Both the position numbers and the translations under genes were made by a program. A DNA stretch of 64,000 nucleotides, from positions 31,428 to 95,427 of the IMG/VR virus record IMGVR_UViG_3300005805_000054. The stretch is one strand, 5' to 3'. The notes below the pieces were generated by a model. The model did not search any database. It saw nothing but the letters and a program-made list of their open reading frames with translations, and had not been told where the DNA came from. Below, in pieces: positions 245-55,493 of the stretch. Numbering within the stretch: position 1 is the stretch's first letter; the number at the start of each line of letters is the position of its first letter. Source of the stretch: a virus. Taxonomy: Duplodnaviria > Heunggongvirae > Uroviricota > Caudoviricetes.

Positions 245-919
245 ATGAGTTATAACAAAACAAAAACAGATCCAGAGTTGGGTCAAAAAGTACACGAGTA
301 TCTAGTAAAAATGGGAGTCGAAACTCCTATCTTTAATTCTATTTTTGATCGTAAAGAAAAGATTGAAAAGATTGAAAAACATTTCAAGATCATCATGGAG
401 ACATTAGGTCTTGACCTCAACGATGACAGTTTAGAAGAAACACCCAAGCGTGTTGCTAAGATGTACGTCAACGAAATTTTCTGGGGCTTAGATTATGAAG
501 CGTTTCCCAAATGCACCACAGTTGATAATAAGATGCAGTATAATGAAATGGTGTGTGAACGCAATGTCAATGTACAATCAAACTGTGAACATCACTTTGT
601 CGTCATTGACGGTCTTGCCACTGTTGCTTACGTACCAAAAGACAAAGTACTTGGATTGAGTAAGATCAATCGTATCGTAGAATATTTCAGTAAGCGTCCT
701 CAAATTCAAGAACGATTGACTGAGCAAGTGTTCTATGCATTGCAGTATATCTTGGACACGGAAGATGTTGCAGTTATGATTGATGCACAACATTATTGTG
801 TTAAGAGTCGTGGTGTAGAAGACACTGGTAGTTCAACTGTCACTAGCAAACTAGGTGGCGGATTCAAAAGTGATCCAGCAGCACGAGCAGAGTTCTATCA
901 ATTAGCACGGGGACGATAA
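245..919 (+). CDS. folE: GTP cyclohydrolase I (FolE), first enzyme toward 7-deazaguanine/pterin precursors
   Basis: 224 aa; conserved GCH-I core including the CEHH zinc motif (VQSNCEHHFVVIDG) and C-terminal ...HYCVKSRGV... region; RBS AAGGAAGG upstream. Confidence 0.85.
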   Translation: MSYNKTKTDPELGQKVHEYLVKMGVETPIFNSIFDRKEKIEKIEKHFKIIMETLGLDLNDDSLEETPKRVAKMYVNEIFWGLDYEAFPKCTTVDNKMQYNEMVCERNVNVQSNCEHHFVVIDGLATVAYVPKDKVLGLSKINRIVEYFSKRPQIQERLTEQVFYALQYILDTEDVAVMIDAQHYCVKSRGVEDTGSSTVTSKLGGGFKSDPAARAEFYQLARGR

Positions 920-1101
920 TGAAATCTATTCCATTATGGCGTAAGTCTATCTATATGTTCTTTGCACCATTGTTCATTTTTGTTTGGATGATCTTTCATC
1001 CTAAACTAGTTTGGGCACAAGCAAAGAAAGAATGGAATGGTACATCAGCCTGCACTGGTGACTGTAATCAAGGACGCAGATGTAATTGTAGAGGAGAATA
1101 A
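919..1101 (+). CDS. small hydrophobic/Cys-rich hypothetical protein
   Basis: 60 aa ORF with ATGA overlap to folE stop; predicted TM segment (FFAPLFIFVWMIF); C-rich tail. Confidence 0.35.
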   Translation: MKSIPLWRKSIYMFFAPLFIFVWMIFHPKLVWAQAKKEWNGTSACTGDCNQGRRCNCRGE

Positions 1102-1102
1102 C

Positions 1103-1339
1103 ATGGGATTCAGAAAACCAATGGACTATAATAGTGTTAGCCATCAAATTTATATGTCAGGTGTAGAACTATACAGCCCTTACAACGACGGATACGTTCA
1201 ATTTGAAATCAAGAAAGACTTGTATAAACTCAAGTGGTTGATTGATGCAATGATGAAGGATAGTCCTGAGTTTGGAGGTGAGCAAGAGTTTGTAAACGAA
1301 CATGAAAAGACTATAATGTGGCGCACACTGACAAAATAA
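1103..1339 (+). CDS. hypothetical protein
   Basis: In-frame ATG with GAGGAG RBS at 1091-1096; 78 aa; translationally coupled to upstream ORF. Confidence 0.4.
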   Translation: MGFRKPMDYNSVSHQIYMSGVELYSPYNDGYVQFEIKKDLYKLKWLIDAMMKDSPEFGGEQEFVNEHEKTIMWRTLTK

Positions 1340-1344
1340 GATTA

Positions 1345-1593
1345 ATGAATAACATGACGAAAGAGGAAGCACGTGCTTTCATTCGTAAGGTTATGGGTCC
1401 TTCCAAACGAACGTTAGAGGGACAAGAGAAAGAAAACATATTACTATTGTTCAAACTAATAGAACCAGTCGAAACTACCAACAATCAACGATCTTTTACA
1501 GAAGAATATGTTCATGCAGGTAAAACATATTACGTTCATTACTTTGGCAGTGAAACAGAAGTAGAAGAAGTATTACCAGATGATATTCAATAA
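1345..1593 (+). CDS. hypothetical protein
   Basis: ORF continues in frame; ATG at 1345 lies just past the previous stop; ends overlapping the next gene. Confidence 0.35.
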   Translation: MNNMTKEEARAFIRKVMGPSKRTLEGQEKENILLLFKLIEPVETTNNQRSFTEEYVHAGKTYYVHYFGSETEVEEVLPDDIQ

Positions 1594-2050
1594 AGTTAAA
1601 GAATTAAAAGAGCAAGGTAAAAAAATTGGCATAACATTTAGTCAATTCGATATGCTACATGCAGGACATATCGCTATGCTTGCAGAAGCAAAAAATCATT
1701 GTGACTATCTAATTGCAGGACTACAAACAAATGCATCCATTGACCGCCCAGACACTAAAAACCCACCTATACAAAGTATTGTGGAACGTCAAATCCAGCT
1801 GGCGGCGTGTCGTTACGTTGACGAAGTGGTTGTGTATAGTACAGAGCAGGACCTCGTTGACCTCTTACTCATACTACCGGTGGATGTCAGAATCCTTGGT
1901 GTCGAATATGCCGACAAGGAGTTCACCGGTAAAAGTGAGTGTGAGCTCCGATCCATCGATCTTGTCTTTAACGGTAGAGATCACTCCTTCAGTTCCAGTA
2001 GCCTACGTAAACGTGTCTATGACAGTGAGTCCAACAAAAGGGGGCAATGA
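1580..2050 (+). CDS. cytidylyltransferase-like nucleotidyltransferase (HxGH family)
   Basis: 156 aa; N-terminal GITFSQFDMLHAGHIAML matches the (H/T)xGH motif of TagD/RfaE-domain-II/CTP-transferase Rossmann-like nucleotidyltransferases. Confidence 0.6.
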   Translation: MIFNKVKELKEQGKKIGITFSQFDMLHAGHIAMLAEAKNHCDYLIAGLQTNASIDRPDTKNPPIQSIVERQIQLAACRYVDEVVVYSTEQDLVDLLLILPVDVRILGVEYADKEFTGKSECELRSIDLVFNGRDHSFSSSSLRKRVYDSESNKRGQ

Positions 2051-2337
2051 TGAATGATTTTATAAACAAGTATAGAATTAAACATGTACGAGTTAGTAAA
2101 GACTATCATACTATAGATTACGGGTATAAGCTAGGATCAACTATTAGTTACAGTGGTCGTGAAGATTTCGTTGAAATGGAATTGCCTCGTAGTGCATTTG
2201 AAGAACTAACGAGTATGGATCGCAAGTTAGAGGACTGGTGTCGGGAAGAGGGTGAAGAAGCATATCTGCGTAGACAACATCCTGCAATCAAAGAAGCGTA
2301 TGAAAAATATTTAATGTTATTGGAGTTATACAGATGA
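2047..2337 (+). CDS. hypothetical protein
   Basis: 96 aa ORF; start overlaps the upstream stop and the 3' end overlaps the downstream start. Confidence 0.4.
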   Translation: MMNDFINKYRIKHVRVSKDYHTIDYGYKLGSTISYSGREDFVEMELPRSAFEELTSMDRKLEDWCREEGEEAYLRRQHPAIKEAYEKYLMLLELYR

Positions 2338-3128
2338 AAAGAATTTTAATTATGGGCTTACCCGGATCGGGTAAAACTTATCTAGCACAGTATGTACTAG
2401 AACATTTACAAAACGAAAAGAAAAAAGTAGGTTGGCTAAATGCCGATGATGTTCGTAAAAAATACAACGACTGGGACTTTAGTACCGAAGGTCGTGTACG
2501 TCAAAGTCTACGTATGCGTGAACTAGCAGATGCAATGACAGAGTATGATTATGTTATCTGTGACTTTGTTGCGCCTTTAGTTGAGATGCGTAACAACTTT
2601 AAAGCAGATTGGACTGTATGGGTTGACACTATCGACAAAGGTCGTTTTGAAGATACCAACAAAGCATTTATTCCACCTGATGTATATGACTTTAGAATTA
2701 CAGAACAACACGGTGAAAAATGGGGCGAGTTTATTGCCGCACATATATTAGACAATAGACGCAGACCAATTTTTGATTGGCAAAAAGAAACTGTACAGAT
2801 GTTGGGTCGTTGGCAACCATGGCATGAAGGACATCGTGCGCTGTTTGAACGTGCTATTGCCAAGACTGGACAAGTAGTTATTCAAATTAGAGACTGTCAA
2901 GGATGGCAAGGAAGTAATCCGTTTGCAATTGACCAAGTAAAAAGTTTTATCAAACGTGACTTAGATATGTTATATCAAGGTCAATATGAGATTCAAATTG
3001 TTCCAAATATTGTAAACATTACATATGGGCGTGATGTTGGATATAAAATTGAACAAGAAACGTTTGATGATGCAACCCATGCTATATCTGCCACAAAAAT
3101 CCGAAAAAGTTTAGGTTTTGGTAAATAA
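2334..3128 (+). CDS. bifunctional P-loop kinase / HxGH nucleotidyltransferase
   Basis: N-terminus ILIMGLPGSGKTYLAQ (Walker A, APS-kinase/gluconokinase-like); C-terminal half has GRWQPWHEGHRALFERA (HxGH nucleotidyltransferase motif). Confidence 0.55.
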   Translation: MKRILIMGLPGSGKTYLAQYVLEHLQNEKKKVGWLNADDVRKKYNDWDFSTEGRVRQSLRMRELADAMTEYDYVICDFVAPLVEMRNNFKADWTVWVDTIDKGRFEDTNKAFIPPDVYDFRITEQHGEKWGEFIAAHILDNRRRPIFDWQKETVQMLGRWQPWHEGHRALFERAIAKTGQVVIQIRDCQGWQGSNPFAIDQVKSFIKRDLDMLYQGQYEIQIVPNIVNITYGRDVGYKIEQETFDDATHAISATKIRKSLGFGK

Positions 3129-3157
3129 GAATAGCGGTCTTTTGGCATCACTCCCGC

Positions 3158-3186
3158 TTTACAAATTCTGCTGCCTATGCTATAAT
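3158..3186 (+). promoter_or_regulatory. sigma70-like promoter (TTTACA-N17-TATAAT) upstream of queD
   Basis: TTTACA 3158-3163, TATAAT 3181-3186, 17-bp spacer; ATG at 3204 with GGAGAA RBS. Confidence 0.45.
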
Positions 3187-3203
3187 CAACATAGGAGAAA
3201 ATC

Positions 3204-3686
3204 ATGGCAAACAAAAAATTCTTTTCAACAAAAACATACAGACAAATAGGTCCTGTAGCATATCGTCAATGGCGTGCAGACAGCCATTGTAACTTAATTC
3301 ATGGCTATGCTATGAGTTTTCACTTTGAGTTTGAGGCTGACACATTAGATGCCCGTAACTGGGTAACTGACTTTGGTGGATTGAAGCCACTAAAGGGAGT
3401 ATTAGAAGATTGGTTTGACCATACTCTATTAGTCGCACAAGATGACCCAATGCGTGAACATCTATTAGAGCTAGGTCGATTGAAACTAGCAAAGATTACA
3501 GAAGTAGAACGTACAGGTTGTGAAGGTATTGCTGACTTCTTGTATGAATACGTTAACACAATCTTTTTACCTAACTGCGGTAGTGAAGAGGCTAAACGTG
3601 TATGGTGCTGTAGAGTAGAAGTACGTGAGACTGATAGCAATATGGCAGGTAGAGGTGGTCATAGGGAAGACGGAGAGTTTGAATAA
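3204..3686 (+). CDS. queD: 6-carboxy-5,6,7,8-tetrahydropterin synthase (QueD/PTPS family)
   Basis: 160 aa; PTPS-fold signatures (HCNLIHGY... zinc-binding Cys/His region; C-terminal ...CRVEVRETD...); adjacent to folE and queE. Confidence 0.65.
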   Translation: MANKKFFSTKTYRQIGPVAYRQWRADSHCNLIHGYAMSFHFEFEADTLDARNWVTDFGGLKPLKGVLEDWFDHTLLVAQDDPMREHLLELGRLKLAKITEVERTGCEGIADFLYEYVNTIFLPNCGSEEAKRVWCCRVEVRETDSNMAGRGGHREDGEFE

Positions 3687-4306
3687 TGTTAGAAACAATT
3701 TGCGATACATTAGTTGAAGCATATAAACGCAATTGGATTACTAGTCGTGATGGCAATGTAAGTATTCGTCATCACGACCGTGACCACTTTTATATTACAC
3801 CAAGTGGTGTGCGTAAACAAACAATGCAACCAGACCAGTTTAAAAAAATCAGTATTCACGGCTTACTCTGGCAAGAAGAATTCTATACTGATATCAGTGC
3901 TAAACTAAAGCCTAGCGGAGAGATTCCACTACACTTCGGTTTACAAAGAGCAATGGGTCAGCATAGTAATGACGTTAGAGTAGTAGTTCATTTGCACCCT
4001 ACCTATTGTGTTGCGGCTATGCATCGTGGTATTGAGTTAAGTAGGCTTGCTGATGACTTTCCTGAACTAAGTCGCTACACTAGTGTAGCACCTAATGTAG
4101 GGGATGTGCCACCTATCAGTCAAGAACTTGCTGACCGTTGTCACGAAAATCTCAAGTTAGATGACTATGGCAATATTGCTTACGACATTGTGGGTATCAA
4201 AGGACACGGGGTTGTTGCCATCGATACTAGCCCGTGGAGGGCGTTTGAACATATAGAACGCCTCGAGCACATTTGCCAAATCGTATTAGCATCAGGGAAA
4301 TATTAA
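3686..4306 (+). CDS. class II aldolase/adducin-family protein (FucA/AraD-like aldolase or epimerase)
   Basis: 206 aa; SRDGNVSIR (phosphate-binding GN(L/V)S motif) and VVHLHPTY (HxH zinc ligands) typical of class II aldolase / L-ribulose-5-P 4-epimerase fold. Confidence 0.5.
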   Translation: MLETICDTLVEAYKRNWITSRDGNVSIRHHDRDHFYITPSGVRKQTMQPDQFKKISIHGLLWQEEFYTDISAKLKPSGEIPLHFGLQRAMGQHSNDVRVVVHLHPTYCVAAMHRGIELSRLADDFPELSRYTSVAPNVGDVPPISQELADRCHENLKLDDYGNIAYDIVGIKGHGVVAIDTSPWRAFEHIERLEHICQIVLASGKY

Positions 4307-4307
4307 C

Positions 4308-4943
4308 ATGAGTTATATAGTAGGATCATTGCCACCCGTCAAGTGCTTTGTTAAAAGAGAATTTCTCTATAATTTTGAAAAGGGTCACGGAGAATTAGAG
4401 CCTGCAATCTGGGTCAGTCTTAAAGCACTACGTGGGCAGGTGTTTCGCATTGAAAGTTTATTACCTAATTACGGAGCACTATATGACAAACTACCGATCC
4501 ACGCTTATGTATGGCAAAAAAATCACACAGGAAATTTACCCATAGATACATTACAACTCTGGGACTGCATGGGCTATCGTTTTACTATCATTGAAAAGAT
4601 AGGCTTACGTAATCTAGGTGTTAAGTTTTTAGGTAAAGACAAAGAATGGCATTATGGAACCTACTTATTTACAGTAGATTTTTGTGCTGACGGCATGGAT
4701 GTGGACACTGGATTTACTGAGGTTTCTGAAGAACATAAATCGTTTAATTTTATTAAGTTAGAGAATGGACAGTTTGCTTGTCAGCCTAACAACCGTTGCT
4801 TGTGGTACGATCAAAGTTTGATTCCCAGTGAAACTAAGTTTCCTGATTTTCAAGCGGCTCAAAATCTATGGACAGTAGACGGCACACGCAAATGGACTGC
4901 GGGGGATGATTGGTTTTATTCTATTGAGGAGAAACATGAATAG
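4308..4943 (+). CDS. hypothetical protein
   Basis: 211 aa ORF, tightly packed after upstream gene. Confidence 0.45.
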   Translation: MSYIVGSLPPVKCFVKREFLYNFEKGHGELEPAIWVSLKALRGQVFRIESLLPNYGALYDKLPIHAYVWQKNHTGNLPIDTLQLWDCMGYRFTIIEKIGLRNLGVKFLGKDKEWHYGTYLFTVDFCADGMDVDTGFTEVSEEHKSFNFIKLENGQFACQPNNRCLWYDQSLIPSETKFPDFQAAQNLWTVDGTRKWTAGDDWFYSIEEKHE

Positions 4944-5130
4944 TTTAGAAAAAATATGGGCAAGAGCAACCGGTCATTTAATGGGTAATACAGATGATGA
5001 TAGACCCGATGTTCCCATTCTTACATTAAGAGAAGCAAGAATTGCATTGTTCCTAAAAACTTTCTGGATTATACTACATGTGATAACATGTTGTTTCATC
5101 ATAGCAAATACATTACGTCATTGGTAACAT

Positions 5131-5322
5131 ATGAATAAAAAAATTAAAGAACTATGGGAAGAAGCCGCTCAACGAGATGACATAATGGATGAAAAACGTT
5201 ATGAACATTTTGCAGAGTTAGTAATTAGAGACTGCGCTAAACAAGTCAATCATCTTTATAAACAAGGTGGTGGAACTTGGGGTGAAGTTATTCTTAAACA
5301 TTTTGATGTAAAGATCAAATGA
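5131..5322 (+). CDS. small protein, divergent member of the MNERIRE paralog family
   Basis: MNKKIKELWEEAAQ...HFAELVIRDCAKQ...ILKHFDVKIK shares N-terminal, central FAEL(I/V)IR(D/E)C and C-terminal KHF.V motifs with ORFs at 26474, 26698, 27759, 29005, 31423 and 63803. Confidence 0.5.
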   Translation: MNKKIKELWEEAAQRDDIMDEKRYEHFAELVIRDCAKQVNHLYKQGGGTWGEVILKHFDVKIK

Positions 5323-5391
5323 TAAATAATAAAGGGTGAACGGATTGATCCTCCTTCTGTGCCAATACACAGATAGCCCATCTATTACTTA

Positions 5392-6174
5392 TTGGAGTAT
5401 CTTATGTTGAAGCAAACACTAATTGAAAAGTCCACGGTACCTAATATTAGGTATATAGACAGATATATTTCATACATTGAAAAATGTAAACTTATACCAA
5501 TCTTTGTTTCTTTTGAAAAACATCATATATTACCTAAATCGTTTGGTGGTAACAATATTAATAACTTAATAAAACTATCACCGAGACACCACTATATTGC
5601 CCATGTTTTACTAGCAAAAGCAACCGGATCTCCTAAAATGATTAAAGCATTACATAAAATGATGTATTCTAGAACAGGTGATGTTAAAAGAGATTATAAG
5701 ATTTCTAGTAGAATGTATGAGTATTTGAGAATTGAACATGCTAAAGTGGTAAGTGCTTATAGTAAAAATACAGTTACTGCTAAACATATGTTTACTAACG
5801 AAGTAAAGCGTATACCAAAAAAACTGTTTGACAAGTATAATGGAGTGTTATATGAGGCAATGGCTAAGGGTAGGAAAGATTCACAAGTGACAATAGAACT
5901 TAAAAGAATTGCCAGCAAAAAACTCAGAAAAGTTAAACAAGGTACTAGAGTAAGAAGTTTGGCCGCGTCAAAGTATTCATATATAACACCCAAAGGGTAT
6001 TGTGAAAATAGCACTGATCTGCTAAACTTATATAGTACTTTTACTAAAAATACATTAACTGTATTAGAAGATGAATTTGTGATTAGTCACAAATTTGCCA
6101 GTATCCACAATGAATTTAAAGATTATGTGGGTAAAAAATTAAAAGACATTGAATTTACAAGAAAGATAAAATGA
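5392..6174 (+). CDS. HNH homing endonuclease
   Basis: 260 aa; HHILPKSFGGNNINNLIKLSPRHHYIAH HNH motif followed by a basic DNA-binding C-terminal region; free-standing between queuosine-pathway genes. Confidence 0.6.
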   Translation: MEYLMLKQTLIEKSTVPNIRYIDRYISYIEKCKLIPIFVSFEKHHILPKSFGGNNINNLIKLSPRHHYIAHVLLAKATGSPKMIKALHKMMYSRTGDVKRDYKISSRMYEYLRIEHAKVVSAYSKNTVTAKHMFTNEVKRIPKKLFDKYNGVLYEAMAKGRKDSQVTIELKRIASKKLRKVKQGTRVRSLAASKYSYITPKGYCENSTDLLNLYSTFTKNTLTVLEDEFVISHKFASIHNEFKDYVGKKLKDIEFTRKIK

Positions 6175-7025
6175 GCAAGTTACATTATACAGAGTTATTT
6201 TATAGCATTCAAGGTGAGGGTAGATATACCGGTGTTCCATCTGTGTTCTTACGAACATTCGGATGTAACTTTAAATGCCGAAATTTCGGCAGAGATAAAA
6301 ATGATACTTCCGATAATCAAGAAGTAATGGATATTATAAAGAATATTGACAAGTATGACAAATTCAAAAGTCTACCACTAGTTAGTACAGGATGCGACAG
6401 TTATAGTTCAGTTTATCCTCAATTCAAATCTTTTGTCACTCATTCTGACACAGATGATATTGTTGACAGTATTATGGATATACTTCCTCACAAGCGTTGG
6501 ATGGATGAACATCTTGTTATCACAGGTGGTGAACCTCTACTCGGATGGCAAAGAGCGTATCCAGAACTACTTTCAAACTCTAAGATGAGTTCATTAAAAG
6601 AGATTACATTTGAAACTAATGGTACACAAGAATTGAGTACAGAGTTCAAAGAATATCTAAATATGTGGAAGATGCATCGTGAAAAGAACGCATTGACATT
6701 CAGTGTCAGTCCTAAATTAAGTATCAGCGGTGAGAAGTGGGAAGAAGCAATTTGTCCCGAAGTCATTCGTCAATATGAAAGTGTTGGCTTTGTCTATCTT
6801 AAATTTGTTGTAGCAAGTGAAGAAGATGTAGAAGAAGCAGAAAAAGCAGTTAAAGAATTTCGTGCTGGTGGATTCAGAGGTCCTGTTTACTTGATGCCAT
6901 GCGGTGGTGTCGAATCATTGTATAACATGAATGCTAAGAATGTAGCGATTGCGGCAATGAATCGTGGCTGGCGTTATAGTGACAGATTACAAGTACCATT
7001 GTTTAAAAACGAGTGGGGCACTTGA
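6171..7025 (+). CDS. queE: 7-carboxy-7-deazaguanine synthase (QueE, radical SAM)
   Basis: 284 aa; N-terminus LFYSIQGEGRYTGVPSVFLRTFGCNFKCRNF matches the QueE (QGEG...TGVP...R..GC...C) signature with a cluster-loop insertion (later TGCDSYS); ATGA overlap with the upstream gene. Confidence 0.7.
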   Translation: MSKLHYTELFYSIQGEGRYTGVPSVFLRTFGCNFKCRNFGRDKNDTSDNQEVMDIIKNIDKYDKFKSLPLVSTGCDSYSSVYPQFKSFVTHSDTDDIVDSIMDILPHKRWMDEHLVITGGEPLLGWQRAYPELLSNSKMSSLKEITFETNGTQELSTEFKEYLNMWKMHREKNALTFSVSPKLSISGEKWEEAICPEVIRQYESVGFVYLKFVVASEEDVEEAEKAVKEFRAGGFRGPVYLMPCGGVESLYNMNAKNVAIAAMNRGWRYSDRLQVPLFKNEWGT

Positions 7026-9595: not shown

Positions 9596-9787
9596 TTAAG
9601 CGGCACCGTAATCACCTTGAGAAAAGTGTATATCATAGTGTTCTCTGATAGAAACTAATTTTAGATTTGCAGGATCGTTATTGTCATGATTTCCGTCAAT
9701 GTGATGAATATCCATAAACTTTGGAATTTTTATCCCGTGAAATTCTTCATAAATCTTTCTATGGGATTTCATAAACTCTGTCCCCAC
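9596..9787 (-). CDS. short HNH endonuclease (possibly truncated)
   Basis: 63 aa; HHIDGNHDNNDPANLKLVSIREHYDIH HNH core; start overlaps SOD stop. Confidence 0.45.
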   Translation of the reverse strand: MGTEFMKSHRKIYEEFHGIKIPKFMDIHHIDGNHDNNDPANLKLVSIREHYDIHFSQGDYGAA

Positions 9788-10323
9788 CTTGTGTTAATTA
9801 CATTCCAGTTTATTATTTTCCATTGTTCGGATAGATATTTCTTTTTATTTGAACCATAGTCCAATAAAAACGCATGTTCCCACCAGTCAACTAATAACAA
9901 TATGTCATTGCGAACTTGATGATTTGGTATTGTTTTGATCTTACCATCAGTTGCTAAGTATATCCAACCACTACCTTGAATCTTCATAGCCTCAGTTTCA
10001 AACTGATCCTTCATACTATCATATGAGCCGTAGTGTTTGTTGATAAAGCCCATCATAGGACCATTTGGTTTATTATTGTTTCTTACTTCACGAAACTGAG
10101 GGAACAATGTATTATGCAAGAATGCACCTGCATAATTAAAGTCTCTATCGCCCTCTTTCTTGTTGTATCGTTCAGCATAACCATGCGCTAACTTGCCATA
10201 GTGTAAGTCCAATGTATCTACTGACAACACAGGACTTACCTCACTTGGCTCAAAGTTAAGCTGAATGATTTCTATATCTTGAGGCTTTGACTTATCCTCA
10301 AGTAACTGAATGATATCACGCAT
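9769..10323 (-). CDS. sodA: Fe/Mn superoxide dismutase
   Basis: 184 aa; LHYGKLAHGYAERYN..., ...FLHNTLFPQF..., DWWEHAFLLDY (the D-x-WEHAYY metal-ligand motif). Confidence 0.8.
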   Translation of the reverse strand: MRDIIQLLEDKSKPQDIEIIQLNFEPSEVSPVLSVDTLDLHYGKLAHGYAERYNKKEGDRDFNYAGAFLHNTLFPQFREVRNNNKPNGPMMGFINKHYGSYDSMKDQFETEAMKIQGSGWIYLATDGKIKTIPNHQVRNDILLLVDWWEHAFLLDYGSNKKKYLSEQWKIINWNVINTRWGQSL

Positions 10324-10324
10324 T

Positions 10325-12838
10325 TTAGTGTCTTAGTAACAACGTTGATATGATGTTAGGGTCATTAGCACTGATATCACCTTCGCCCGGAGCAACGATA
10401 ACATTGTACTTCATACCTTGAGGTATCGACTTACGCTTAGCCATATACTCATCGTATGATAAGATACTGTTAGCACTTAGTCCATACTCACTAGCCAATC
10501 TTTGTTTTAGTTCAGGTAACTTGTCAGGTTGTACTTGCCATTGGCCACTTGCCCCCTTAACTAAGTTTTTCTTTTCATCCTTAACTAACAAATCTTGGAA
10601 CAAATCATCTGGAACAATACGACTATTCTTAGTTGTATCTAAGTTGGCATCTTTTGCTTTAACTTGTTTCTCTTGACTTGTGTTAGCACCTTCACTCCAG
10701 TTGATAATGAAGTTAGGTGGTTTCTGTGCAAGTGCGGCACCTGCCATTTTTGTGTAAGCATAGAACTTAACATCAGGATGCTTTGCAGCCATCTTTAATG
10801 CCATGTCTAAGTATTCCGGACTAAAGAAGTCACCAGCATCGTGCCAACGAACAGTTGTTTGCCAGCCATTAGGGAATTTCTTATCACCTTTTTTACCAGC
10901 AACTGATTCTTTTGTAATCTCAGCACTTAGTTGATTGAAGAAGCCATCTGGGTCGTTCAATAGATATGTCAAGATACGACCGTCACTTTGCCACGGACCT
11001 TGGAACTGAACTTTACCACCCTTCATAGCGAAACAATCTACTTTACATGAACCAGCACCTGGACATGTGTTAACAATGATTAGATTGTTAGTTTGTTCAT
11101 CTAGTGCGATACCAGTCAATGCAGCAAAGCCAACGTTGAAGAATTGTTCAAACTCTCCGTTACTATGCTTCATCTTTTCGTTCTGCTTTAATAATGCTTT
11201 AGGACGAATCGCTAGAGTTTTCTTAACTGCGTCTTCATCATATGTCTTACCATCAGGACTCAAGTATGACACAACGCTTGAACGATGGATATAAGGCATC
11301 TTGTATCTGTCGCTCTTAGTCTTACCGGACACATACTTTTCATTGCCCTTCTTGTCAGTCTTGACATTACCTTGTTTGTCTACATCGGGCGTACCGACAA
11401 TACGATTCATATAGTCTTGAAACTCTTGACCACCAAACTCACGACTTTGTGCTGGTAGTTTAGTTGCTTCTTCTAAGCCAGATAGTTTACGAATTCTGTT
11501 TAAATGTTCTAGGCCTTCCGCCACAGCTTGCTTCAACTTTCTTCTTAGCATTGATTTGGCTTTATCAATGTCCATTCGGATATATGATCGTTCCATCCCA
11601 AACATTTCTGCTGCGGCGTTAGTCAATTCCTCGATATGATTTTTGAGTTCATCTACTGACATTTTTGAAAGATTAGGTTCCTCGGAATAATCAGAGCCTT
11701 CCGCCACACCTTCGTCTAAATCTGGATTCATCTTCTCGTATTCTCCAAGACCTTCGAACCAGCCCTCGTCATATTCTTCCGCTTCTTTGCTTCTAAGAGG
11801 AAAAGGATTGCGTTTTCTATTACCATTATACCCGTCACTAAATCCTTGGTCGTAAGGATCATCATAGCCCTCCGCCACACCTTGATCTTTGATGTTTAGT
11901 TGCTTTTTAGTATAGGCCACTGCGTCATCTAATGCGACCAAACCTTTTTGTTCAGAGTTCTTGCTCAATCCAGTATCATAAAGTTCATCACCGTTATAGA
12001 TACGAACCTGCCACCCCATTCCAGTATTGACCAAATCGTGTCTAAAGTTTCCTACCTTGACTGACTTGACTACATTCTTTCCCGAGCCTTCCGCCACACC
12101 TTGCTTTAAGCAATGTTTTAATTCTGCTACTGCTTCTTCATATGAGTCATAGCCCGCATTGTCTATATCGTAAGCATAACACTTCATATACCACTGACCA
12201 ACACCAGGACTTGACTCGCGGTCAATACCAACTTCGCCTACTGGTTCACCGTTTTTCTTAAACACGTTGCGTTGTTGGTCTGCATGACCTTCCGTCATGC
12301 CTTGCTGCCTGGCTTTTCTTTCAGCCGCCCTACGAGCAACTTCTTTTGGTGTGTGTGGGGTGCCATCAGCGTAAAATTTTGTATCTTTGCCGTACTTGGC
12401 CTGGCGAATGGCCTTTTGTGTTTTTGCTAAAGCAACTGCATCTCTAAATTGTTTTGTATCTTCAATGTCATCCAAAGAGCCTTCCGCCACACCTTGCTGT
12501 TTTCTACCATAACCTTGTCCGGCTGCTTTCAGTCCTTTGGATTTTTCGTTGCGACCTTTCAAGAAACCGGCATTATAATGTTTGAAGTTGTCTCCCCACT
12601 CTGCCTTGGCACGGTCCATATTATTACCTACACCTTCACGGCCATGTTTTAGGCCATACATATATGCAGTTCTTACTATGTCATTGTCTGTTAAGCCTTC
12701 CGCCACACCTTCTTCTGATTCTTCACCGGGCATGTCGCCAGCTTTAGCAACGAATTGCTGAGGTGTCATAATTTGGATACCACCAGGTGCTCCGGGCATC
12801 TTTGGCTCAGCGCCTTCCATTAAATGTCTGATTTTCAT
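10325..12838 (-). CDS. large (837 aa) protein with seven GVAEG/GMTEG repeat linkers and a ~400 aa C-terminal Cys-rich domain; candidate processed polyprotein / internal virion protein
   Basis: Seven copies of (Q/E)GVAEG (one is GMTEG) encoded by the near-identical nucleotide repeat ccttccgccacacc at 11514, 11694, 11866, 12084, 12286, 12477 and 12694; C-terminal domain contains NTCPGAGSCKVDCFAMKGG. Confidence 0.6.
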   Translation of the reverse strand: MKIRHLMEGAEPKMPGAPGGIQIMTPQQFVAKAGDMPGEESEEGVAEGLTDNDIVRTAYMYGLKHGREGVGNNMDRAKAEWGDNFKHYNAGFLKGRNEKSKGLKAAGQGYGRKQQGVAEGSLDDIEDTKQFRDAVALAKTQKAIRQAKYGKDTKFYADGTPHTPKEVARRAAERKARQQGMTEGHADQQRNVFKKNGEPVGEVGIDRESSPGVGQWYMKCYAYDIDNAGYDSYEEAVAELKHCLKQGVAEGSGKNVVKSVKVGNFRHDLVNTGMGWQVRIYNGDELYDTGLSKNSEQKGLVALDDAVAYTKKQLNIKDQGVAEGYDDPYDQGFSDGYNGNRKRNPFPLRSKEAEEYDEGWFEGLGEYEKMNPDLDEGVAEGSDYSEEPNLSKMSVDELKNHIEELTNAAAEMFGMERSYIRMDIDKAKSMLRRKLKQAVAEGLEHLNRIRKLSGLEEATKLPAQSREFGGQEFQDYMNRIVGTPDVDKQGNVKTDKKGNEKYVSGKTKSDRYKMPYIHRSSVVSYLSPDGKTYDEDAVKKTLAIRPKALLKQNEKMKHSNGEFEQFFNVGFAALTGIALDEQTNNLIIVNTCPGAGSCKVDCFAMKGGKVQFQGPWQSDGRILTYLLNDPDGFFNQLSAEITKESVAGKKGDKKFPNGWQTTVRWHDAGDFFSPEYLDMALKMAAKHPDVKFYAYTKMAGAALAQKPPNFIINWSEGANTSQEKQVKAKDANLDTTKNSRIVPDDLFQDLLVKDEKKNLVKGASGQWQVQPDKLPELKQRLASEYGLSANSILSYDEYMAKRKSIPQGMKYNVIVAPGEGDISANDPNIISTLLLRH

Positions 12839-13191
12839 TTCATATTCCTAATTTTTTGTTCGGCAATCATTACTAATTCTTGCATCTGTTCTACACTCTC
12901 GCAGTTCCATCTACGTAATGCTTTATTGATTGGGCTATCCGGATCTCTCTTAGTCTTAGCACTTGCATGTGCCTTCTTCATGCCACTCATACGAGCGCAG
13001 AATGATTTACGGCGTTTGGCAGCTTTAGAACCCTTCTTTAGTTTTGAAGGCTTAGTGGTAACAGCAGTCTTTAGTTTAGATCCTGGATTTTCCCTACGAT
13101 ATGCTTTTACCGCTTTACGGCTCATACCAGAAGTTTTGTCCTTTTTATTGACCTTTTGCCAATCTTCATTGATAATTTCATCTGCTCTCAT
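12835..13191 (-). CDS. small highly basic protein (Lys/Arg-rich), possible DNA-binding/internal protein
   Basis: 118 aa; about 30% K/R; ATGA-overlap with the downstream big ORF on the same strand. Confidence 0.5.
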   Translation of the reverse strand: MRADEIINEDWQKVNKKDKTSGMSRKAVKAYRRENPGSKLKTAVTTKPSKLKKGSKAAKRRKSFCARMSGMKKAHASAKTKRDPDSPINKALRRWNCESVEQMQELVMIAEQKIRNMK

Positions 13192-13208
13192 TTTAGTATC
13201 CTAAATAG

Positions 13209-13237
13209 TTGACTTTATTGCGTAGGTATGCTACACT
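13209..13237 (+). promoter_or_regulatory. candidate sigma70 promoter for uvdE (TTGACT-N17-TACACT)
   Basis: TTGACT 13209-13214, TACACT 13232-13237 in the divergent intergenic region. Confidence 0.35.
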
Positions 13238-13267
13238 GTATCTATTATTTATCATTTTGGTCTATCT

Positions 13268-14299
13268 ATGTATACAAATCAGTCAGTCAAACGCATTGGA
13301 TTTGCGTGTAAATGGGCAGAAATCAATAAGAAAGGTGAGATTGTTTCAGCCGAAGGTCTTAACACAGGCGGTACAACACAAGCATGGGCAAAGCGTAACA
13401 ACCGTAGTGTAGTAGAAGAAAAGATTATGGATGTTGCTAAACGCAATATTCTCAATACACATGCACTAGTTAAGAAAGTTGCAACACTTAATCCACAATT
13501 GCGTATGTTGCGTCTTACTAGTGATATGTTTTCATTTTATACCATGGATGGATACAAAGATTTCTGGCATAGTACCGATGTACAGAATAGCTTAGAACGT
13601 TGGATGGCACCTATCGGTGAAACTGCACGTGCCAATGATGTTCGTCTAAGTTTTCACCCCGATCAGTTTGTAGTTTTAGCAAGTGACCGTGAAGAAGTAG
13701 TAAATAAGAGTATAGAAGAATTTGAATATCATTGTGACATGGCTCGATGGATGGGTTATGGGCAAAAGTTTCAAGATATGAAAATCAATGTACATATCTC
13801 AGGACGTAGAGGACCACAAGGCATTAGAGATGTATACAACAGATTGTCGCCAGAAGCGAGAAACACACTTACACTAGAGAATGAGGAATATACACATGGA
13901 CTATCTGACTGCTTATCATTATCTGACCTCGTACCTACGGTCATGGACATCCATCACCACTCCATTCGGGAAATTGAATATATTAAATCTACTGATGACC
14001 GCATTAAAAAGGTTATTGACAGTTGGCGTGGTGTTCGTCCTACTATCCATTATTCTATTAGTAGGGAAGATGTACTTATCAACCATTCCAGATCAATCTT
14101 ACCCGATGTTAGTGCGTTGATTGAATCAGGACATAATAAACAAAAGTTACGGGCCCATAGTGACTATATGTGGTCAGATGCCGCAAACGATTGGGCATAC
14201 ACTCATTGGGATTGGGCCGATGTTATGGTGGAAGCAAAAGCCAAAAACCTAGCTAGTTTTAAACTGTTTGAGTATTGGAAAAGCCTTGAAATGAAGTGA
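13268..14299 (+). CDS. uvsE: UV DNA damage endonuclease (UvdE/UvsE family)
   Basis: 343 aa; collinear matches to the recalled B. subtilis UvsE sequence: VRLSFHPDQFVVLASD, INVHISGRRGPQG, TLTLENEE, MDIHHHS, HSDYMW, ADVMVEAKAKN. Confidence 0.8.
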   Translation: MYTNQSVKRIGFACKWAEINKKGEIVSAEGLNTGGTTQAWAKRNNRSVVEEKIMDVAKRNILNTHALVKKVATLNPQLRMLRLTSDMFSFYTMDGYKDFWHSTDVQNSLERWMAPIGETARANDVRLSFHPDQFVVLASDREEVVNKSIEEFEYHCDMARWMGYGQKFQDMKINVHISGRRGPQGIRDVYNRLSPEARNTLTLENEEYTHGLSDCLSLSDLVPTVMDIHHHSIREIEYIKSTDDRIKKVIDSWRGVRPTIHYSISREDVLINHSRSILPDVSALIESGHNKQKLRAHSDYMWSDAANDWAYTHWDWADVMVEAKAKNLASFKLFEYWKSLEMK

Positions 14300-14914
14300 T
14301 GGGTCTTTTTTGATAGATGCGACAAGTGTTTGGCTACATCCTAATATTTTAGAAATTTTTTTAACAGAATATCCTTCTGCGATAAATCTGAATATTTCTA
14401 TTAACGCATCTAGTCTATGCTCGTTTTTAGATTTGATGATAGAAATTTTTCTATCAATGGAACAGGGTAGTTTCTTACCAAACATCCCGTTCTTGTCTCC
14501 TTTCTTAGAAAGAGATAAATTTTCTTTCCAAGATGAATTCATTACCCTTCCTACAAAAGCCCTGGACCATTTTTCTTTTGTTTTGTCCGACGGTTTCCAT
14601 CCTTCTTTTGTTGGGGGTCTACTTCCTCCTTTATTAGCATTCCAGCCAATATTTCTATTTGGTCGTAGTGCTTCTTCCAATAAATAACATCCTTCTTCGG
14701 TACCTTGAAAAATAATAGTTTGAGTTATCTCATGTGTATGTTTCTGTAATACCCTACCAAAAAATGGATTTTTATCATTATATGTTCTTGAATCGTTTAA
14801 ATGTTCAGAGAGTCTGCGTTTGGGATTATTAGAAACACCTACATACCCTTCTGAGTTGATATCAGTATGATGCGGCAAATGAATCCAATAGACGGAATGC
14901 GTATAAATAGTCAT
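14249..14914 (-). CDS. GIY-YIG homing endonuclease (Seg-like)
   Basis: 221 aa; N-terminus MTIYTHSVYWIHL...GYVGVSNNPKRRLSEH (GIY-YIG core), basic C-terminal DNA-binding region; overlaps the 3' end of uvdE convergently. Confidence 0.7.
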   Translation of the reverse strand: MTIYTHSVYWIHLPHHTDINSEGYVGVSNNPKRRLSEHLNDSRTYNDKNPFFGRVLQKHTHEITQTIIFQGTEEGCYLLEEALRPNRNIGWNANKGGSRPPTKEGWKPSDKTKEKWSRAFVGRVMNSSWKENLSLSKKGDKNGMFGKKLPCSIDRKISIIKSKNEHRLDALIEIFRFIAEGYSVKKISKILGCSQTLVASIKKDPSLHFKAFPILKQFKTS

Positions 14915-15045
14915 GCTGATTGCTCCTTTGTAGCATTAGAGAGGGTGGGTATTTCCAGTACCGCGACTCTCATTTTTATTTATCATTTTACTTGACTTCT
15001 TGTGGTAAATATGATATGATTGACTGACTTACATGAAAGATACAA

Positions 15046-15477
15046 ATGTTTAACAAAATAAAAAATCTATTTAAGAAACCGGAAGTTATTCCTGAAGTAA
15101 AGAAAGAAAAGAAGCCTCGCAAGCCTAAGGAGAAGAAGGTTGCACCTGAACTTACTGCTAAAGAAAAAGCAACACAGGCAGGTGAGCCTTATGTTAACAT
15201 CATTAAGATGGAAGTAGATCCTAAGGACCTGAACAGCGGTCATATAGAACTTGACTTCAACGATAAGTTTGTATTGAATCTAATTCGTGCAGGTTACAAA
15301 ATGAAAGATACCGATACAGATAATGATATCGTAGATCGCTGGTGGACTAATTTATGTAGAGCAACTGTATTAGAAACCTTTGAACAAGAAATCGCTGATC
15401 CTGATAAACGGGCACCCGGAGATGTACGCAATGTAGTCACTCGGGATTTAGGAAACGGTCGTACTGAGGTTAGTTAA
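15046..15477 (+). CDS. hypothetical protein with Lys-rich N-terminus
   Basis: 143 aa ORF; ATGA overlap with the downstream HNH gene. Confidence 0.45.
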   Translation: MFNKIKNLFKKPEVIPEVKKEKKPRKPKEKKVAPELTAKEKATQAGEPYVNIIKMEVDPKDLNSGHIELDFNDKFVLNLIRAGYKMKDTDTDNDIVDRWWTNLCRATVLETFEQEIADPDKRAPGDVRNVVTRDLGNGRTEVS

Positions 15478-16520
15478 TGATTGAATGGCCAATAGAAATA
15501 ATAGATTCCAAATACAGAAGATGGTATGAGGGAATTATAAACAAAGCCAATAAACGAGGACTACCTGCTAAAAAATCTTCAATGCAATATGATGGTAACT
15601 ATACTGAATTACATCATATAGTCCCTAGGTCATTCGGTGGCAAGGATGATAAAACTAATCTAGTGCGGTTTACTGCCAGAGAACATTTTATATGTCATTG
15701 GTTATTAGTGAAAATGACAACAGGTAAGCATCGTGCTAAGATGGTAACTGCATTAATAATGATGACTGGTCAAGGAAGTAAATCTGCAAGATATTCTAGT
15801 ATCAATAAAAATAGTAAATGGTATGAAAAAATAAGAAAAGAATATGCTGAACAAGTCAGTAAAAGAATGTCTGGTAGAAAAGTTTCAGAAGAAACTAAAA
15901 AGAAATTAAGTATTGCTAAGACTGGCACAAAAATGTCAGATGAAGTAAAAAGAAAACAAAGTGAACGACAAAAAGGAAAGCCTAGAAATTTATCAGAAGA
16001 AGGTAGAAAAAGATTAATTGAAGCCCTAAAAAATAAAGTAGTAGTCGTATCAGAAGAAACAAGAAAGAAGCATAGCATAAACAATTCAGGTGCCGGCAAC
16101 CCTTTTTATGGTAAAAAACATTCACAAGAATCTATGGAAAAAATTCGTGAATATCATTCAAGACCCGAAATAAAAAAACAAAAAAGCGAGCGTGCCATGG
16201 GTGATAAAAATCCTGCAAAGCGCAGTGATGTTAGATTGTCTATTAGTAAAACACAAAAAGAAAGACTTGACAAAGAAAGAGCCACTGGTACCGGATACTT
16301 TAGTGCAGAACAAAAGGCTAAACGAAGCGAAGTGCAGACAGGTGCAAAAAACGGTAACGCAAAGACCTTTAAGTGTACATCTCCTAATGGGGAAGTACAC
16401 ATGGTTACAGGTCGGTTAAAAAAGTTTTGTAAAGAGTATAATTTATCATACGGATCTATTTTGGGTAAAGATATAGTGGAACATCGGGGATGGACTATAG
16501 AATTTATACCAAAAAAATAA
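15477..16520 (+). CDS. HNH homing endonuclease with NUMOD3-like repeats
   Basis: 347 aa; ELHHIVPRSFGGKDDKTNLVRFTAREHFICH HNH motif; repeated (S/K)EETKKKLS / NPFYGKKHSQES NUMOD3-type DNA-binding repeats. Confidence 0.65.
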   Translation: MIEWPIEIIDSKYRRWYEGIINKANKRGLPAKKSSMQYDGNYTELHHIVPRSFGGKDDKTNLVRFTAREHFICHWLLVKMTTGKHRAKMVTALIMMTGQGSKSARYSSINKNSKWYEKIRKEYAEQVSKRMSGRKVSEETKKKLSIAKTGTKMSDEVKRKQSERQKGKPRNLSEEGRKRLIEALKNKVVVVSEETRKKHSINNSGAGNPFYGKKHSQESMEKIREYHSRPEIKKQKSERAMGDKNPAKRSDVRLSISKTQKERLDKERATGTGYFSAEQKAKRSEVQTGAKNGNAKTFKCTSPNGEVHMVTGRLKKFCKEYNLSYGSILGKDIVEHRGWTIEFIPKK

Positions 16521-31426: not shown

Positions 31427-31665
31427 ACAAACGAATTCGAGAACTTCATATGCAGGCGCAACAAGAGGCTTTCAATGAACCAATTGATATTGAAAATTGT
31501 GCAGTAGAAGATATAAAAGGATTCAGTCAACAAGTTTACGAAAAGTTTGCTGAGTTGATTGCTTACGAATGCATCGACCTTGCGCTAGGATCAAGTCATA
31601 GAGAAGATGATATGGGTGCTATCATTGCCAATAAGATTAGAAAACATTTTGGAGTTGAAGAATGA
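31423..31665 (+). CDS. MNERIRE-family small protein (paralog 5)
   Basis: MNKRIRELHMQAQ...KFAELIAYECIDL...RKHFGVEE. Confidence 0.55.
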   Translation: MNKRIRELHMQAQQEAFNEPIDIENCAVEDIKGFSQQVYEKFAELIAYECIDLALGSSHREDDMGAIIANKIRKHFGVEE

Positions 31666-51325: not shown

Positions 51326-51411
51326 GATATGAGCGTTAGAGTAGTCGGAGAGGTAAGAGACTCGTGGACTACACTTTTATTTATCATTGTGCCCAAAAAC
51401 TTCAAAATTAG

Positions 51412-55411: not shown

Positions 55412-55440
55412 TTGACATTAAAATAGGTTAGTGTTATACT
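55412..55440 (+). promoter_or_regulatory. sigma70-like promoter for nadV (TTGACA-N17-TATACT)
   Basis: TTGACA 55412-55417, TATACT 55435-55440. Confidence 0.5.
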
Positions 55441-55493
55441 GTAAACAAGTCCTAGCGATAGACGCAAGGCAATTTAACTTAAAAGGAACTTTT

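Follow-up and report, generated by a model that had tools for sequence, protein, structure and literature searches.

What kind of gene alternates, within a single reading frame, between one short, nearly invariant linker and a series of segments that are unrelated to one another? The question is raised by a stretch of 64,000 nucleotides (nt) from a virus of the Caudoviricetes (IMG/VR record IMGVR_UViG_3300005805_000054, positions 31,428 to 95,427), hereafter called the window, whose ORF list holds an open reading frame (ORF) for a protein of 837 amino acids (aa) at 10325..12838 on the minus strand. The best reading of the source is an uncultivated T4-like phage (freshwater metagenome). The ORF belongs to a family-wide, multi-gene array of modules which are exchanged in frame at a linker with the peptide sequence GVAEG. 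A preliminary description of this DNA had treated the gene as a single oddity; its architecture is indeed unusual, but it forms part of a system spread over several genes. We moderately favour an interpretation in which the protein would be a cargo precursor: it would enter the prohead, a protease of the T4 gp21 type would cut each linker, and the linker DNA would serve as a recombination joint.

Linkers, modules and the C-terminal domain

Five copies of GVAEG, one GMTEG and one AVAEG were present in the 837-aa protein (general form (Q/E)G(V/M)(A/T)EG), starting at aa 44, 116, 180, 247, 320, 377 and 438. From the N to the C terminus the product consists of a tag, a conserved leader, six unrelated modules, a motif resembling a scaffold C-terminus and a GP88 domain, a putative enzyme. 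Every junction reads (Q/E)-G-V-A-E-G or, in a wider form, [VMLI]-x-E with a small residue next to it. The features of the array are as follows:

12806..12838, minus strand: N-terminal tag MKIRHLMEGAE, aa 1-11, resembling the T4 capsid-targeting sequence
12710..12805, minus strand: conserved leader PKMPGAPGGIQIMTPQQFVAKAGDMPGEESEE, aa 12-43, near-invariant across 97 orthologues
12695..12709, minus strand: linker 1, GVAEG, aa 44-48 (motif and DNA core)
12494..12694, minus strand: module M1, LTDNDIVRTAYMYGLKHG..., aa 49-115, recurring in other multi-module proteins, e.g. P0153
12479..12493, minus strand: linker 2, GVAEG, aa 116-120 (motif and DNA core)
12302..12478, minus strand: module M2, helical, aa 121-179 (AlphaFold2 (AF2) predicted local distance difference test (pLDDT) ~75 at aa 128-179)
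12287..12301, minus strand: linker 3, GMTEG, aa 180-184, a variant two transitions away from the consensus
12101..12286, minus strand: module M3, HADQQRNVFKKNGEPVGEVGIDRESSPG..., aa 185-246, common in other carriers, including those with DUF6321 or ParB C-termini
12086..12100, minus strand: linker 4, GVAEG, aa 247-251 (motif and DNA core)
11882..12085, minus strand: module M4, a four-strand sheet plus helix, aa 252-319 (pLDDT 73-91), found in many other carriers
11867..11881, minus strand: linker 5, GVAEG, aa 320-324 (motif and DNA core)
11711..11866, minus strand: module M5, acidic and predicted to be disordered, aa 325-376 (AF2 model, composition)
11696..11710, minus strand: linker 6, GVAEG, aa 377-381 (motif and DNA core)
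11528..11695, minus strand: module M6, helical, aa 382-437 (pLDDT ~80 at aa 395-438)
11513..11527, minus strand: linker 7, AVAEG, aa 438-442 (motif and DNA core)
11468..11512, minus strand: conserved mini-module LEHLNRIRKLSGLEE, aa 443-457, ending in an extra L-x-E/A boundary (here and below, the slash marks the boundary)
10325..11467, minus strand: GP88 C-terminal domain, aa 458-837 plus stop, with a radical-SAM-like fold and an invariant CX5CX3C

The preliminary description had reported seven repeated motifs at these positions, encoded by near-identical DNA and separated by unrelated segments, and the positions, the core statistics and the pairwise comparisons all agreed with it; the segments, given there as 60-130 aa, measured 52-68 aa. 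The linker core, CCTTCCGCCACACC on the plus strand, occurred six times within the ORF with at most one mismatch, against 0.10 copies expected over the whole window, and the observed count was reached in 0 of 100 shuffles. Its sole match elsewhere in the window (30342, two mismatches) brought the total to seven. A repeat finder aligned six linker copies across ~19-29 nt, and the seventh, GMTEG, read GGC ATG ACG GAA GG, differing by transitions from the consensus GGTGTGGCGGAAGG. Apart from the shortness of the motif, nothing speaks for chance, low complexity or a recent functionless local duplication, and the probability of such an origin is negligible: seven matches, six of them in the ORF, stand against 0.1 expected, a scan of the region for tandem repeats returned no array, and the exact linker 17-mer, CAAGGTGTGGCGGAAGG, was retrieved from at least 120 IMG/VR stretches, other viral contigs in which it lies in several gene families.

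The inter-linker segments were mutually unrelated (best E value 0.02, in a database of six sequences), and Pfam and PHROGs detected no known domain in the six modules. In the protein as a whole the same searches found GP88 alone, with no peptidase and no known conflict domain. Some residues of the mini-module (L446, I449, R450, L452, S453, G454 and L455) were invariant, and the leader element G-phi-x-phi-M-S/T-phi-x-x-F-phi (phi being a hydrophobic residue) was preserved in distant GP88 clades. The AF2 model of the full-length protein was weak (pLDDT 54 overall) and was therefore used only for its pattern of order and disorder: all seven linkers lay between folded units, in stretches whose pLDDT was below 50. 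Among phage records, megablast of 25 kb against 50,697 entries gave no match, and tblastn of the whole protein aligned the GP88 part only (6 records).

The last ~380-400 aa formed a single repeat-free domain, as had been described, with three cysteines. Pfam GP88 (PF17338) matched aa 550-724 with 84.2 bits (cut-off 24.4), and a model of aa 458-837, built from an alignment of 97 diverse representatives, was confident (pLDDT 94.9, predicted template modelling score 0.91). Searched against a viral structure library, the model matched “Gene 88” and “Gp37/Gp68-like” proteins; its structural matches also included radical SAM enzymes, with spore photoproduct lyase ranking top. A Foldseek search of the PDB with the same domain gave nothing significant, and a sequence-profile search of the PDB revealed no homology to solved structures. 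The three invariant cysteines (CPGAGSCKVDC) form CX5CX3C instead of the canonical radical SAM motif CX3CX2C, and the domain is for this reason called radical-SAM-like and not filed as a radical SAM enzyme. The “effector-like” domain of the preliminary description is thus a single domain, as stated there, whose identity as GP88 with a radical-SAM-like fold had been missed.

Linker DNA and module exchange

The linker DNA is a near-invariant, GC-rich 15-18-mer, (C/G)AAGGTGTGGCGGAAGG(C/T), with ~73% GC in its core against 38% in the genome. Codon usage at 72 unique GVAEG sites was compared with the background usage in the same ORFs:

GGT, first Gly: 100% of the linkers, 54% of the background
GTG, Val: 92% of the linkers, 9.6% of the background
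GCG, Ala: 94% of the linkers, 6.5% of the background
GAA, Glu: 86% of the linkers, 75% of the background
GGC, last Gly: 65% of the linkers, 23% of the background

The linker is fixed on rare codons, so that its conservation concerns the nucleotide sequence. At invariant residues of the C-terminal domain, used as a control (CPGAG, HDAGDF, VIVAPGEG), synonymous codons varied freely and GTG and GCG were almost never used. Substitutions to M, T, S, D and A, each at its own linker position, lay a single base away from the consensus codons, and fit decay from one ancestral sequence.

The use of rare GTG and GCG (9.6% and 6.5%) in 92-94% of the linkers, exactly at domain boundaries, would also suit a linker kept for a reason of RNA or translation, either as a rare-codon pause at GTG-GCG, giving the module before it time to fold, or as an RNA motif bound by a regulator, with the peptide incidental. 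This is very improbable: an Rfam scan of the region matched no family, pausing needs no specific 15-18-mer, variants were tolerated only while V and E stayed, distant clades kept the peptide pattern on other codons, and module exchange is left unexplained by pausing. Internal translation starts or frameshifting at the linkers were considered and rejected, there being no consistent start codon after the linkers and the frame being kept in all those examined.

A database search returned 703 homologues of the 837-aa protein, and orthologues were compared among the best 120 of these, with DNA from 80 IMG/VR loci. In this set the last ~400 aa were 64-96% identical, with about 90% identity for the C-terminal domain, and the first ~40 aa common to all, while length ranged from 469 to 860 aa and the number of linkers from 0 to 7. 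Altogether, about 200 orthologues retained the ~40-aa leader and the C-terminal domain around 0-7 modules. In minimal orthologues the leader was fused straight to the C-terminal domain (...EVDE/ATKLPA); the others in the 80 loci carried one to five modules from a large pool, with ~94 module clusters among 139 unique carriers. The VRDLGY module started at aa 264, 44, 48 and 118 in loci L004, L013, L017 and L029, respectively; its DNA was 94.5-98% identical among these four genes, against 81-87% for their C-terminal domains. Module order was permuted: A-B-C in L017 was C-A-B in L029, with module DNA 97-100% identical, a backbone of 87% identity and all breakpoints at linkers. Since the same modules are permuted, are far more similar in DNA than the backbones that carry them and break at linkers, shuffling of modules at the linkers is observed directly. 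The preliminary description had proposed the linkers as recombination points and a comparison of orthologues for gain or loss of modules; the whole-module differences were bounded exactly by linkers, with 0-7 linkers per protein and modules both permuted and moved.

The exchange extended beyond GP88 genes. DNA cores with at most one mismatch occurred 63 times inside and 61 times outside the GP88 ORFs of the 80 loci, all in frame on the coding strand; those outside belonged to the DUF6321 carrier upstream and to ORFs downstream. The modules common to GP88 and DUF6321 carriers included zinc ribbons, YQFKGPFPFDVDHM... and LYHATG.... A search with the window array alone detected 290 other proteins with modules M1, M3 or M4, whose C-termini differed (including DUF6321, ParB and RMF). 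In the window, the second carrier family is represented by a minimal, module-free form directly upstream:

12835..13191, minus strand: basic DUF6321 protein (Pfam DUF6321), 118 aa, with the tag MRADEIINE

The 837-aa ORF begins with an ATG that overlaps the stop codon of this gene. The domain was recognised at 48 bits (cut-off 28.5), and the isoelectric point of 10.5 and 33 lysines plus arginines bear out the very basic character noted earlier. DUF6321 orthologues elsewhere held up to five GVAEG-delimited modules between the tag and DUF6321, the largest example having 834 aa and five linkers (L042).

Repeated copying through recombination would maintain the uniformity of the linker, to which selection for an efficient short-homology joint possibly adds. 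The linker could also be both a capsid-protease site and the target of a dedicated DNA exchange mechanism, e.g. by a homing-type endonuclease from these loci or at a recombination hotspot. We consider such an in-frame “protein-module integron” unlikely; were it true, a large clade of uncultivated phages would build up, rearrange and trade a pool of hundreds of injected mini-proteins across several carrier genes.

Four homing-endonuclease-type genes (HNH, GIY-YIG, NUMOD3-containing and PHROG “homing endonuclease”) were located within 11 kb around the locus:

5392-6174, plus strand: homing-endonuclease-type gene
9596-9787, minus strand: homing-endonuclease-type gene
14249-14914, minus strand: homing-endonuclease-type gene
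15477-16520, plus strand: homing-endonuclease-type gene

Shuffling at linkers needs no cleavage of the protein, and conservation on rare codons indicates a role of the DNA. Both fit an uncleaved modular protein of the “polyvalent” type, in which the linkers would be flexible spacers and recombination joints and the modules would decorate or regulate the enzyme. Disordered linker segments are expected of any spacer, and phages are known to encode polyvalent proteins of 2-15 domains (PMC5512222). We regard this reading as a real though minor possibility, on which the peptide at the module boundaries and the N-terminal tags have a direct bearing.

Candidate cleavage sites, tags and capsid genes

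Boundaries were sampled independently of the motif, avoiding circularity, by taking the sequence on either side of M3 and M4 where these modules occur in other proteins (n=164):

P4: Gly 83%
P3: Val 92%, the remainder mostly Met, Leu or Ile
P2: Ala 86%
P1: Glu 98%
P1': Gly 80%

The pattern [VMLI]-x-E was present at 159 of the 164 boundaries (97%). In distant GP88 clades whose DNA had diverged, the boundaries read GVDEA, DVEES, GLAEG and GMAEA. The linkers thus have a hydrophobic P3, a Glu at P1 and an exposed position, the features of a gp21-type site: T4 gp21 cleaves after Glu in L/I-x-E, and related giant-phage proteases cleave after Glu in S/A-x-E (PMC9026906).

Module M4 was also encoded by stand-alone genes (72-83 aa), with short N-terminal tags ending in hydrophobic-x-E right before the module. 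Their N-flanks were MRMRDILRE/GVVKS, MKINELLRE/GVIKS, ...YINLVE/NKNIVKS and ...EYISE/SKIVKS; the corresponding flank in arrays was ...QGVAE/GSGKNVVKS.

Tags at the carrier N-termini resemble the T4 capsid-targeting sequence, a resemblance that does not amount to proof of targeting. The T4 tags, read from NC_000866, are MKTYQEFIAE/A (IPII and IPIII), MKTFKEFT...ITE/A (IPI) and MELITELFDE (Alt), and the first ten residues of IPIII are enough for encapsidation (PMC9026906). Those found here were MKIRHLMEGAE and MNFKELFEGVE in GP88 carriers, MRADEIINE and MRFSEIISE in DUF6321 carriers, and MRANEFITE or MRAxEFITE in neighbouring genes. Matched by one regular expression, the tag was present in 2 of the 77 window ORFs of at least 100 aa, exactly the 837-aa and DUF6321 ORFs. 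In the loci it was found in 32 of the 44 ORFs that bear linkers and in 110 of the other 1021, these 110 being mostly co-oriented neighbours in the same cluster. All 75 unique tag contexts were co-oriented, on unrelated ORFs around the GP88 gene, in a hypervariable locus where only the tag was conserved. Synonymous codons vary within the tag, whose conservation is therefore at the peptide level, in contrast to that of the linker.

Downstream of GP88, at L002 10271-13700 and in many other loci, runs of unrelated co-oriented ORFs started with MRA(x)EF(I/V/L)(T/N/S)E (four consecutive tagged ORFs in L002). By analogy, these runs resemble the polymorphic internal-protein loci of T-even phages. In the window, the gene directly downstream of the 837-aa ORF is:

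9769..10323, minus strand: Fe/Mn superoxide dismutase (SOD; Pfam Sod_Fe_C and Sod_Fe_N)

Its 18-aa N-terminal extension, MRDIIQLLEDKSKPQDIE, is tag-like, ends in I-E and was kept in all 20 unique orthologues. The enzyme is possibly a further tagged capsid cargo, its membership of the unit being uncertain.

For an uncleaved protein these results are difficult to accommodate: P3 Val and P1 Glu were fixed at 92-98% while other positions drifted, [GDS][VLM]xE[GAES] was kept by distant clades with different DNA, the tags of stand-alone modules had hydrophobic-x-E as their last residues, equally far from the module, and the carriers' tags resembling the T4 capsid-targeting sequence were conserved as peptide, not DNA.

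Genes for head proteins were found only in loci retrieved by the linker 17-mer. Two linker-bearing contigs (L113 and L097) encoded a portal, a gp67-like acidic protein, a prohead protease, a scaffold and a major capsid protein (MCP), with an array gene just downstream. The protease, of the T4 gp21 type, was 42-44% identical to that of cyanophage P-TIM68. In L113 and L133, the array gene that follows the MCP gene included an M3-like module, and other linker loci adjoined terminase or tail-sheath genes.

The motif I[RK][RKSNE]L[AS]GL, taken from LEHLNRIRKLSGLEE, was scanned over 1.4 million residues of six-frame ORFs and was confined to GP88 carriers, the extreme C-termini of the L113 and L097 scaffolds and the C-terminus of one L105 array protein. 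The scaffolds read ...IKRLAGL and the L105 protein ended in ...RIRKLSGL; in every GP88 carrier the motif was internal. To judge from its sequence, the RIRKLSGL-type motif may be a short procapsid-binding peptide. The proteins ending in the motif are:

L113, 5430-6515: scaffold
L097, 787-1887: scaffold
L105, minus strand, first 614 nt of the reverse complement: array protein

The L105 ORF had been considered as a scaffold; this was rejected on BLAST, which identified another array protein.

The upstream partner gene points to a similar setting. DUF6321 was detected by tblastn in 506 phage records, mostly Kyanoviridae and pelagiphages, and in the cultured T4-like cyanophages P-TIM68 and S-SRM01 the gene for its carrier is found next to the terminase subunit genes or between them, within the block of packaging and structural genes. 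Their multi-module DUF6321 proteins are:

L081, 2981-4264: P-TIM68
L082, 2432-4261: S-SRM01

Small Cys-rich modules (WSEKYKKSIDCNNPKGF..., DACYHKVKSRY..., KCWDGYKKKG...) were common to these two carriers and the metagenomic arrays. A search of a literature library yielded no mention of GVAEG in a phage context or of DUF6321.

Two elements precede the gene pair in the window:

13243..13254, minus strand: late-promoter-like element TGATAAATAATA (xATAAATA), 55 nt upstream of the DUF6321 ATG
13192..13237, minus strand: conserved 5' leader GTGTAGCATACCTACGCAATAAAGTCAACTATTTAGGATACTAAA of the two-gene unit, ahead of its first gene, present once in the window

Orthologous loci gave 29 unique upstream regions, and the element, GATAAATA, was unchanged in all 29. 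TGATAAATAATA matched the window seven times with at most one mismatch (1.1 expected) and preceded four ORF starts by 50-60 nt, including two homing-endonuclease genes:

5320-5331, plus strand: TGATAAATAATA
13243-13254, minus strand: TGATAAATAATA
14974-14985, minus strand: TGATAAATAATA
51375-51386, minus strand: TGATAAATAATA

To judge from sequence and position, these sites probably belong to a class of promoters akin to the T4 late promoter. The canonical TATAAATA was not enriched in the window (3 matches, 5.6 expected), and scans for sigma-70 promoters and terminators gave chance level.

The boundary logo would suit any Glu-specific endopeptidase, and the linkers might be cut outside the capsid by a host or another phage Glu-specific protease, the array being a compact way to express small early proteins. 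The window neighbourhood, metabolic and repair-related and not structural, and the stand-alone M4 genes in nucleotide-metabolism regions agree with such cytoplasmic cleavage. We hold it to be improbable given that the N-terminal tags resemble specifically the T4 capsid-targeting sequence, that a scaffold C-terminus motif lies inside the carrier, that in other contigs and in cyanophages the array genes have MCP and terminase genes as neighbours, that a conserved late-promoter-like element lies upstream, and that no other protease candidate was noticed in the cluster.

In the capsid-cargo reading, the DUF6321-GP88 pair would be expressed from the late-type promoter. The N-terminal tag, and perhaps the RIRKLSGL motif too, would then bring the precursor into the prohead core, where a prohead protease, presumably of the T4 gp21 type, would cut the linkers and free the modules and the enzyme inside the capsid. 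The cargo would be ejected with the DNA and, in the manner of T4 IPI-III and Alt, act early in host takeover or against host defences. The linker DNA would be a short-homology joint permitting in-frame insertion, deletion, permutation and exchange between carriers and co-infecting phages.

Several observations weigh against this reading. Searches by tblastn with T4 gp18-24 and P-TIM68 head proteins detected none in the window or the 80 GP88 loci (nor did they with P-TIM68 recombination and late-sigma proteins), the contigs with head genes were short and not tied to any GP88 contig, and the DUF6321-GP88 pair was surrounded by metabolic and repair genes. The linker has Val at P3, against L/I in the documented T4 consensus (PMC9026906), and the site deduced for the MCP of L113, YLKE/N, is unlike GVAE/G. 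The late-promoter assignment is a 7-of-8 match to TATAAATA, the T4 late promoter. The leader (aa 12-43) and the C-terminal domain co-occur across the whole GP88 family, a point which also favours the uncleaved protein: as they travel together they may need each other, with the modules inserted into a protein that stays intact. Cultured cyanophage DUF6321 carriers contain similar modules without GVAEG linkers, the split-nrdA site of stand-alone M4 genes described below is a mobile-insertion context and not of the virion type, and a radical-SAM-like Fe-S enzyme would be an unusual capsid cargo. Both cleavage and packaging are wholly inferred. The prohead-protease-processed capsid polyprotein suggested in the preliminary description has the indirect support of five independent lines consistent with it, namely the boundaries, the tags of carriers, those of stand-alone modules, the protease on linker-bearing contigs and the scaffold motif; the window itself is devoid of head genes.

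An ALMEG/ALLEG segment near the MCP N-terminus was examined as a linker-like site and rejected, as the same LLEG segment is conserved in T4 gp23. In several metagenomic phages, stand-alone M4 of the LVE type, together with a 251-255-aa ORF, separated the two pieces of a split nrdA (ribonucleotide reductase large subunit):

L206, 5702-9279: split nrdA with stand-alone M4
L210, 3082-6622: split nrdA with stand-alone M4
L211, 1842-5382: split nrdA with stand-alone M4

Such an nrdA “in pieces” resembles the mobE insertion in nrdA of phage Aeh1.

The genes of the window include RIIA, ligase, nicotinamide adenine dinucleotide (NAD) salvage, UvdE and SOD genes. The following were also noted:

245-7025, plus strand: cluster with GTP cyclohydrolase I (245-919), PTPS/QueD-like (3204-3686) and QueE-like radical SAM (6171-7025) genes, together with cytidylyltransferase, kinase and class II aldolase genes and the inserted homing endonuclease at 5392-6174
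46194-47201, plus strand: PstS-like phosphate-binding protein
53404-54423 and 55431-56891, plus strand: NAD salvage, comprising a fused nicotinamide mononucleotide adenylyltransferase-like/NUDIX protein and a nicotinamide phosphoribosyltransferase

The cluster at 245-7025 suggests 7-deazapurine or another nucleotide/DNA modification. Aquatic T4-like phages typically carry NAD-salvage and PstS-like genes as auxiliary metabolic genes.

If the capsid-cargo reading is true, many small host-takeover and anti-defence proteins would enter the capsid by way of a single tag and be released by the protease, and the set could be rearranged fast and always in frame, one 18-base sequence doing both jobs. 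The linker 17-mer and its peptide provide a search handle for hundreds of candidate injected effectors of 50-70 aa in metagenomes, otherwise “hypothetical”. The system also offers a directly testable model for the evolution of T4-like head cargo and a ready-made scheme for packing several foreign proteins into phage capsids. It would give two uncharacterised families, GP88 with its radical-SAM-like fold and CX5CX3C, and DUF6321, a possible place in the virion.

Relation to known systems

No close known system combines fused unrelated modules with a uniform, nucleotide-identical and translated joint. The internal proteins IPI-III and Alt of T4 share with the array a short tag, M-K/R-x-x-(x)-E-F/I-I-x-E, on otherwise unrelated proteins, hydrophobic-x-Glu boundaries followed by a small residue, and a hypervariable locus in which the tag alone is conserved (for T4, PMC9026906 and NC_000866). 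Further likenesses are the basic neighbour, which may bind DNA, and the presence of an enzyme among the cargo (Alt in T4, GP88 here). The T4 cargo is encoded by separate genes with one tag each, whereas here up to seven units are fused and the sites are internal, frozen at the nucleotide level and with Val instead of Leu/Ile at P3; packaging and cleavage are inferred here.

In phiKZ, 201phi2-1 and SPN3US, many proteins inside the head, among them ejection and inner-body proteins, are processed by gp21-related proteases, which cut behind the Glu of S/A-x-E, frequently more than once per protein (PMC9026906). Those sites remove propeptides of single proteins, whereas the linkers separate unrelated modules; the phiKZ-type proteins lack a shared nucleotide-identical linker, and cassette-like exchange is undescribed among them. 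Polyvalent proteins (Iyer et al. 2017, PMC5512222) likewise carry many unrelated domains per polypeptide and show extensive mosaicism, and Iyer et al. suggest that they are delivered along with the DNA and then processed to single units. They are recognised by several conflict domains, usually with an MPTase or peptidase, whereas Pfam and PHROGs found GP88 only in the 837-aa protein; their domains are larger, recognisably enzymatic and typically accompanied by their own MPTase, in contrast to modules of 50-70 aa with a uniform linker at every junction. The likeness to Pfam GP88, to Gp37/Gp68 (DUF5131-type) proteins and to radical SAM enzymes covers the C-terminal domain only.

At the DNA level, the segments flanking PeSL cassettes and internal-protein (IP) loci may mediate homologous exchange between co-infecting T4-like phages. 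In the PeSL cassettes and polymorphic IP loci, reportedly described by Arbiol et al. in 2010 and Repoila et al. in 1994, short conserved DNA flanks variable units. Those units are intergenic cassettes or tag-coding 5' gene ends, whereas the joint described here lies within an ORF, is translated and preserves the frame. Integron attC cassettes also form ordered series of unrelated units, variable in number and order, with a repeated recombination site. In integrons the units are genes; here they are protein modules of one ORF, linked by a coding joint of 15-18 nt without an inverted repeat, and no integrase was among the families found in general scans of the window and loci. In contrast to integrons, exchange of the modules would probably proceed by general homologous or short-homology recombination.

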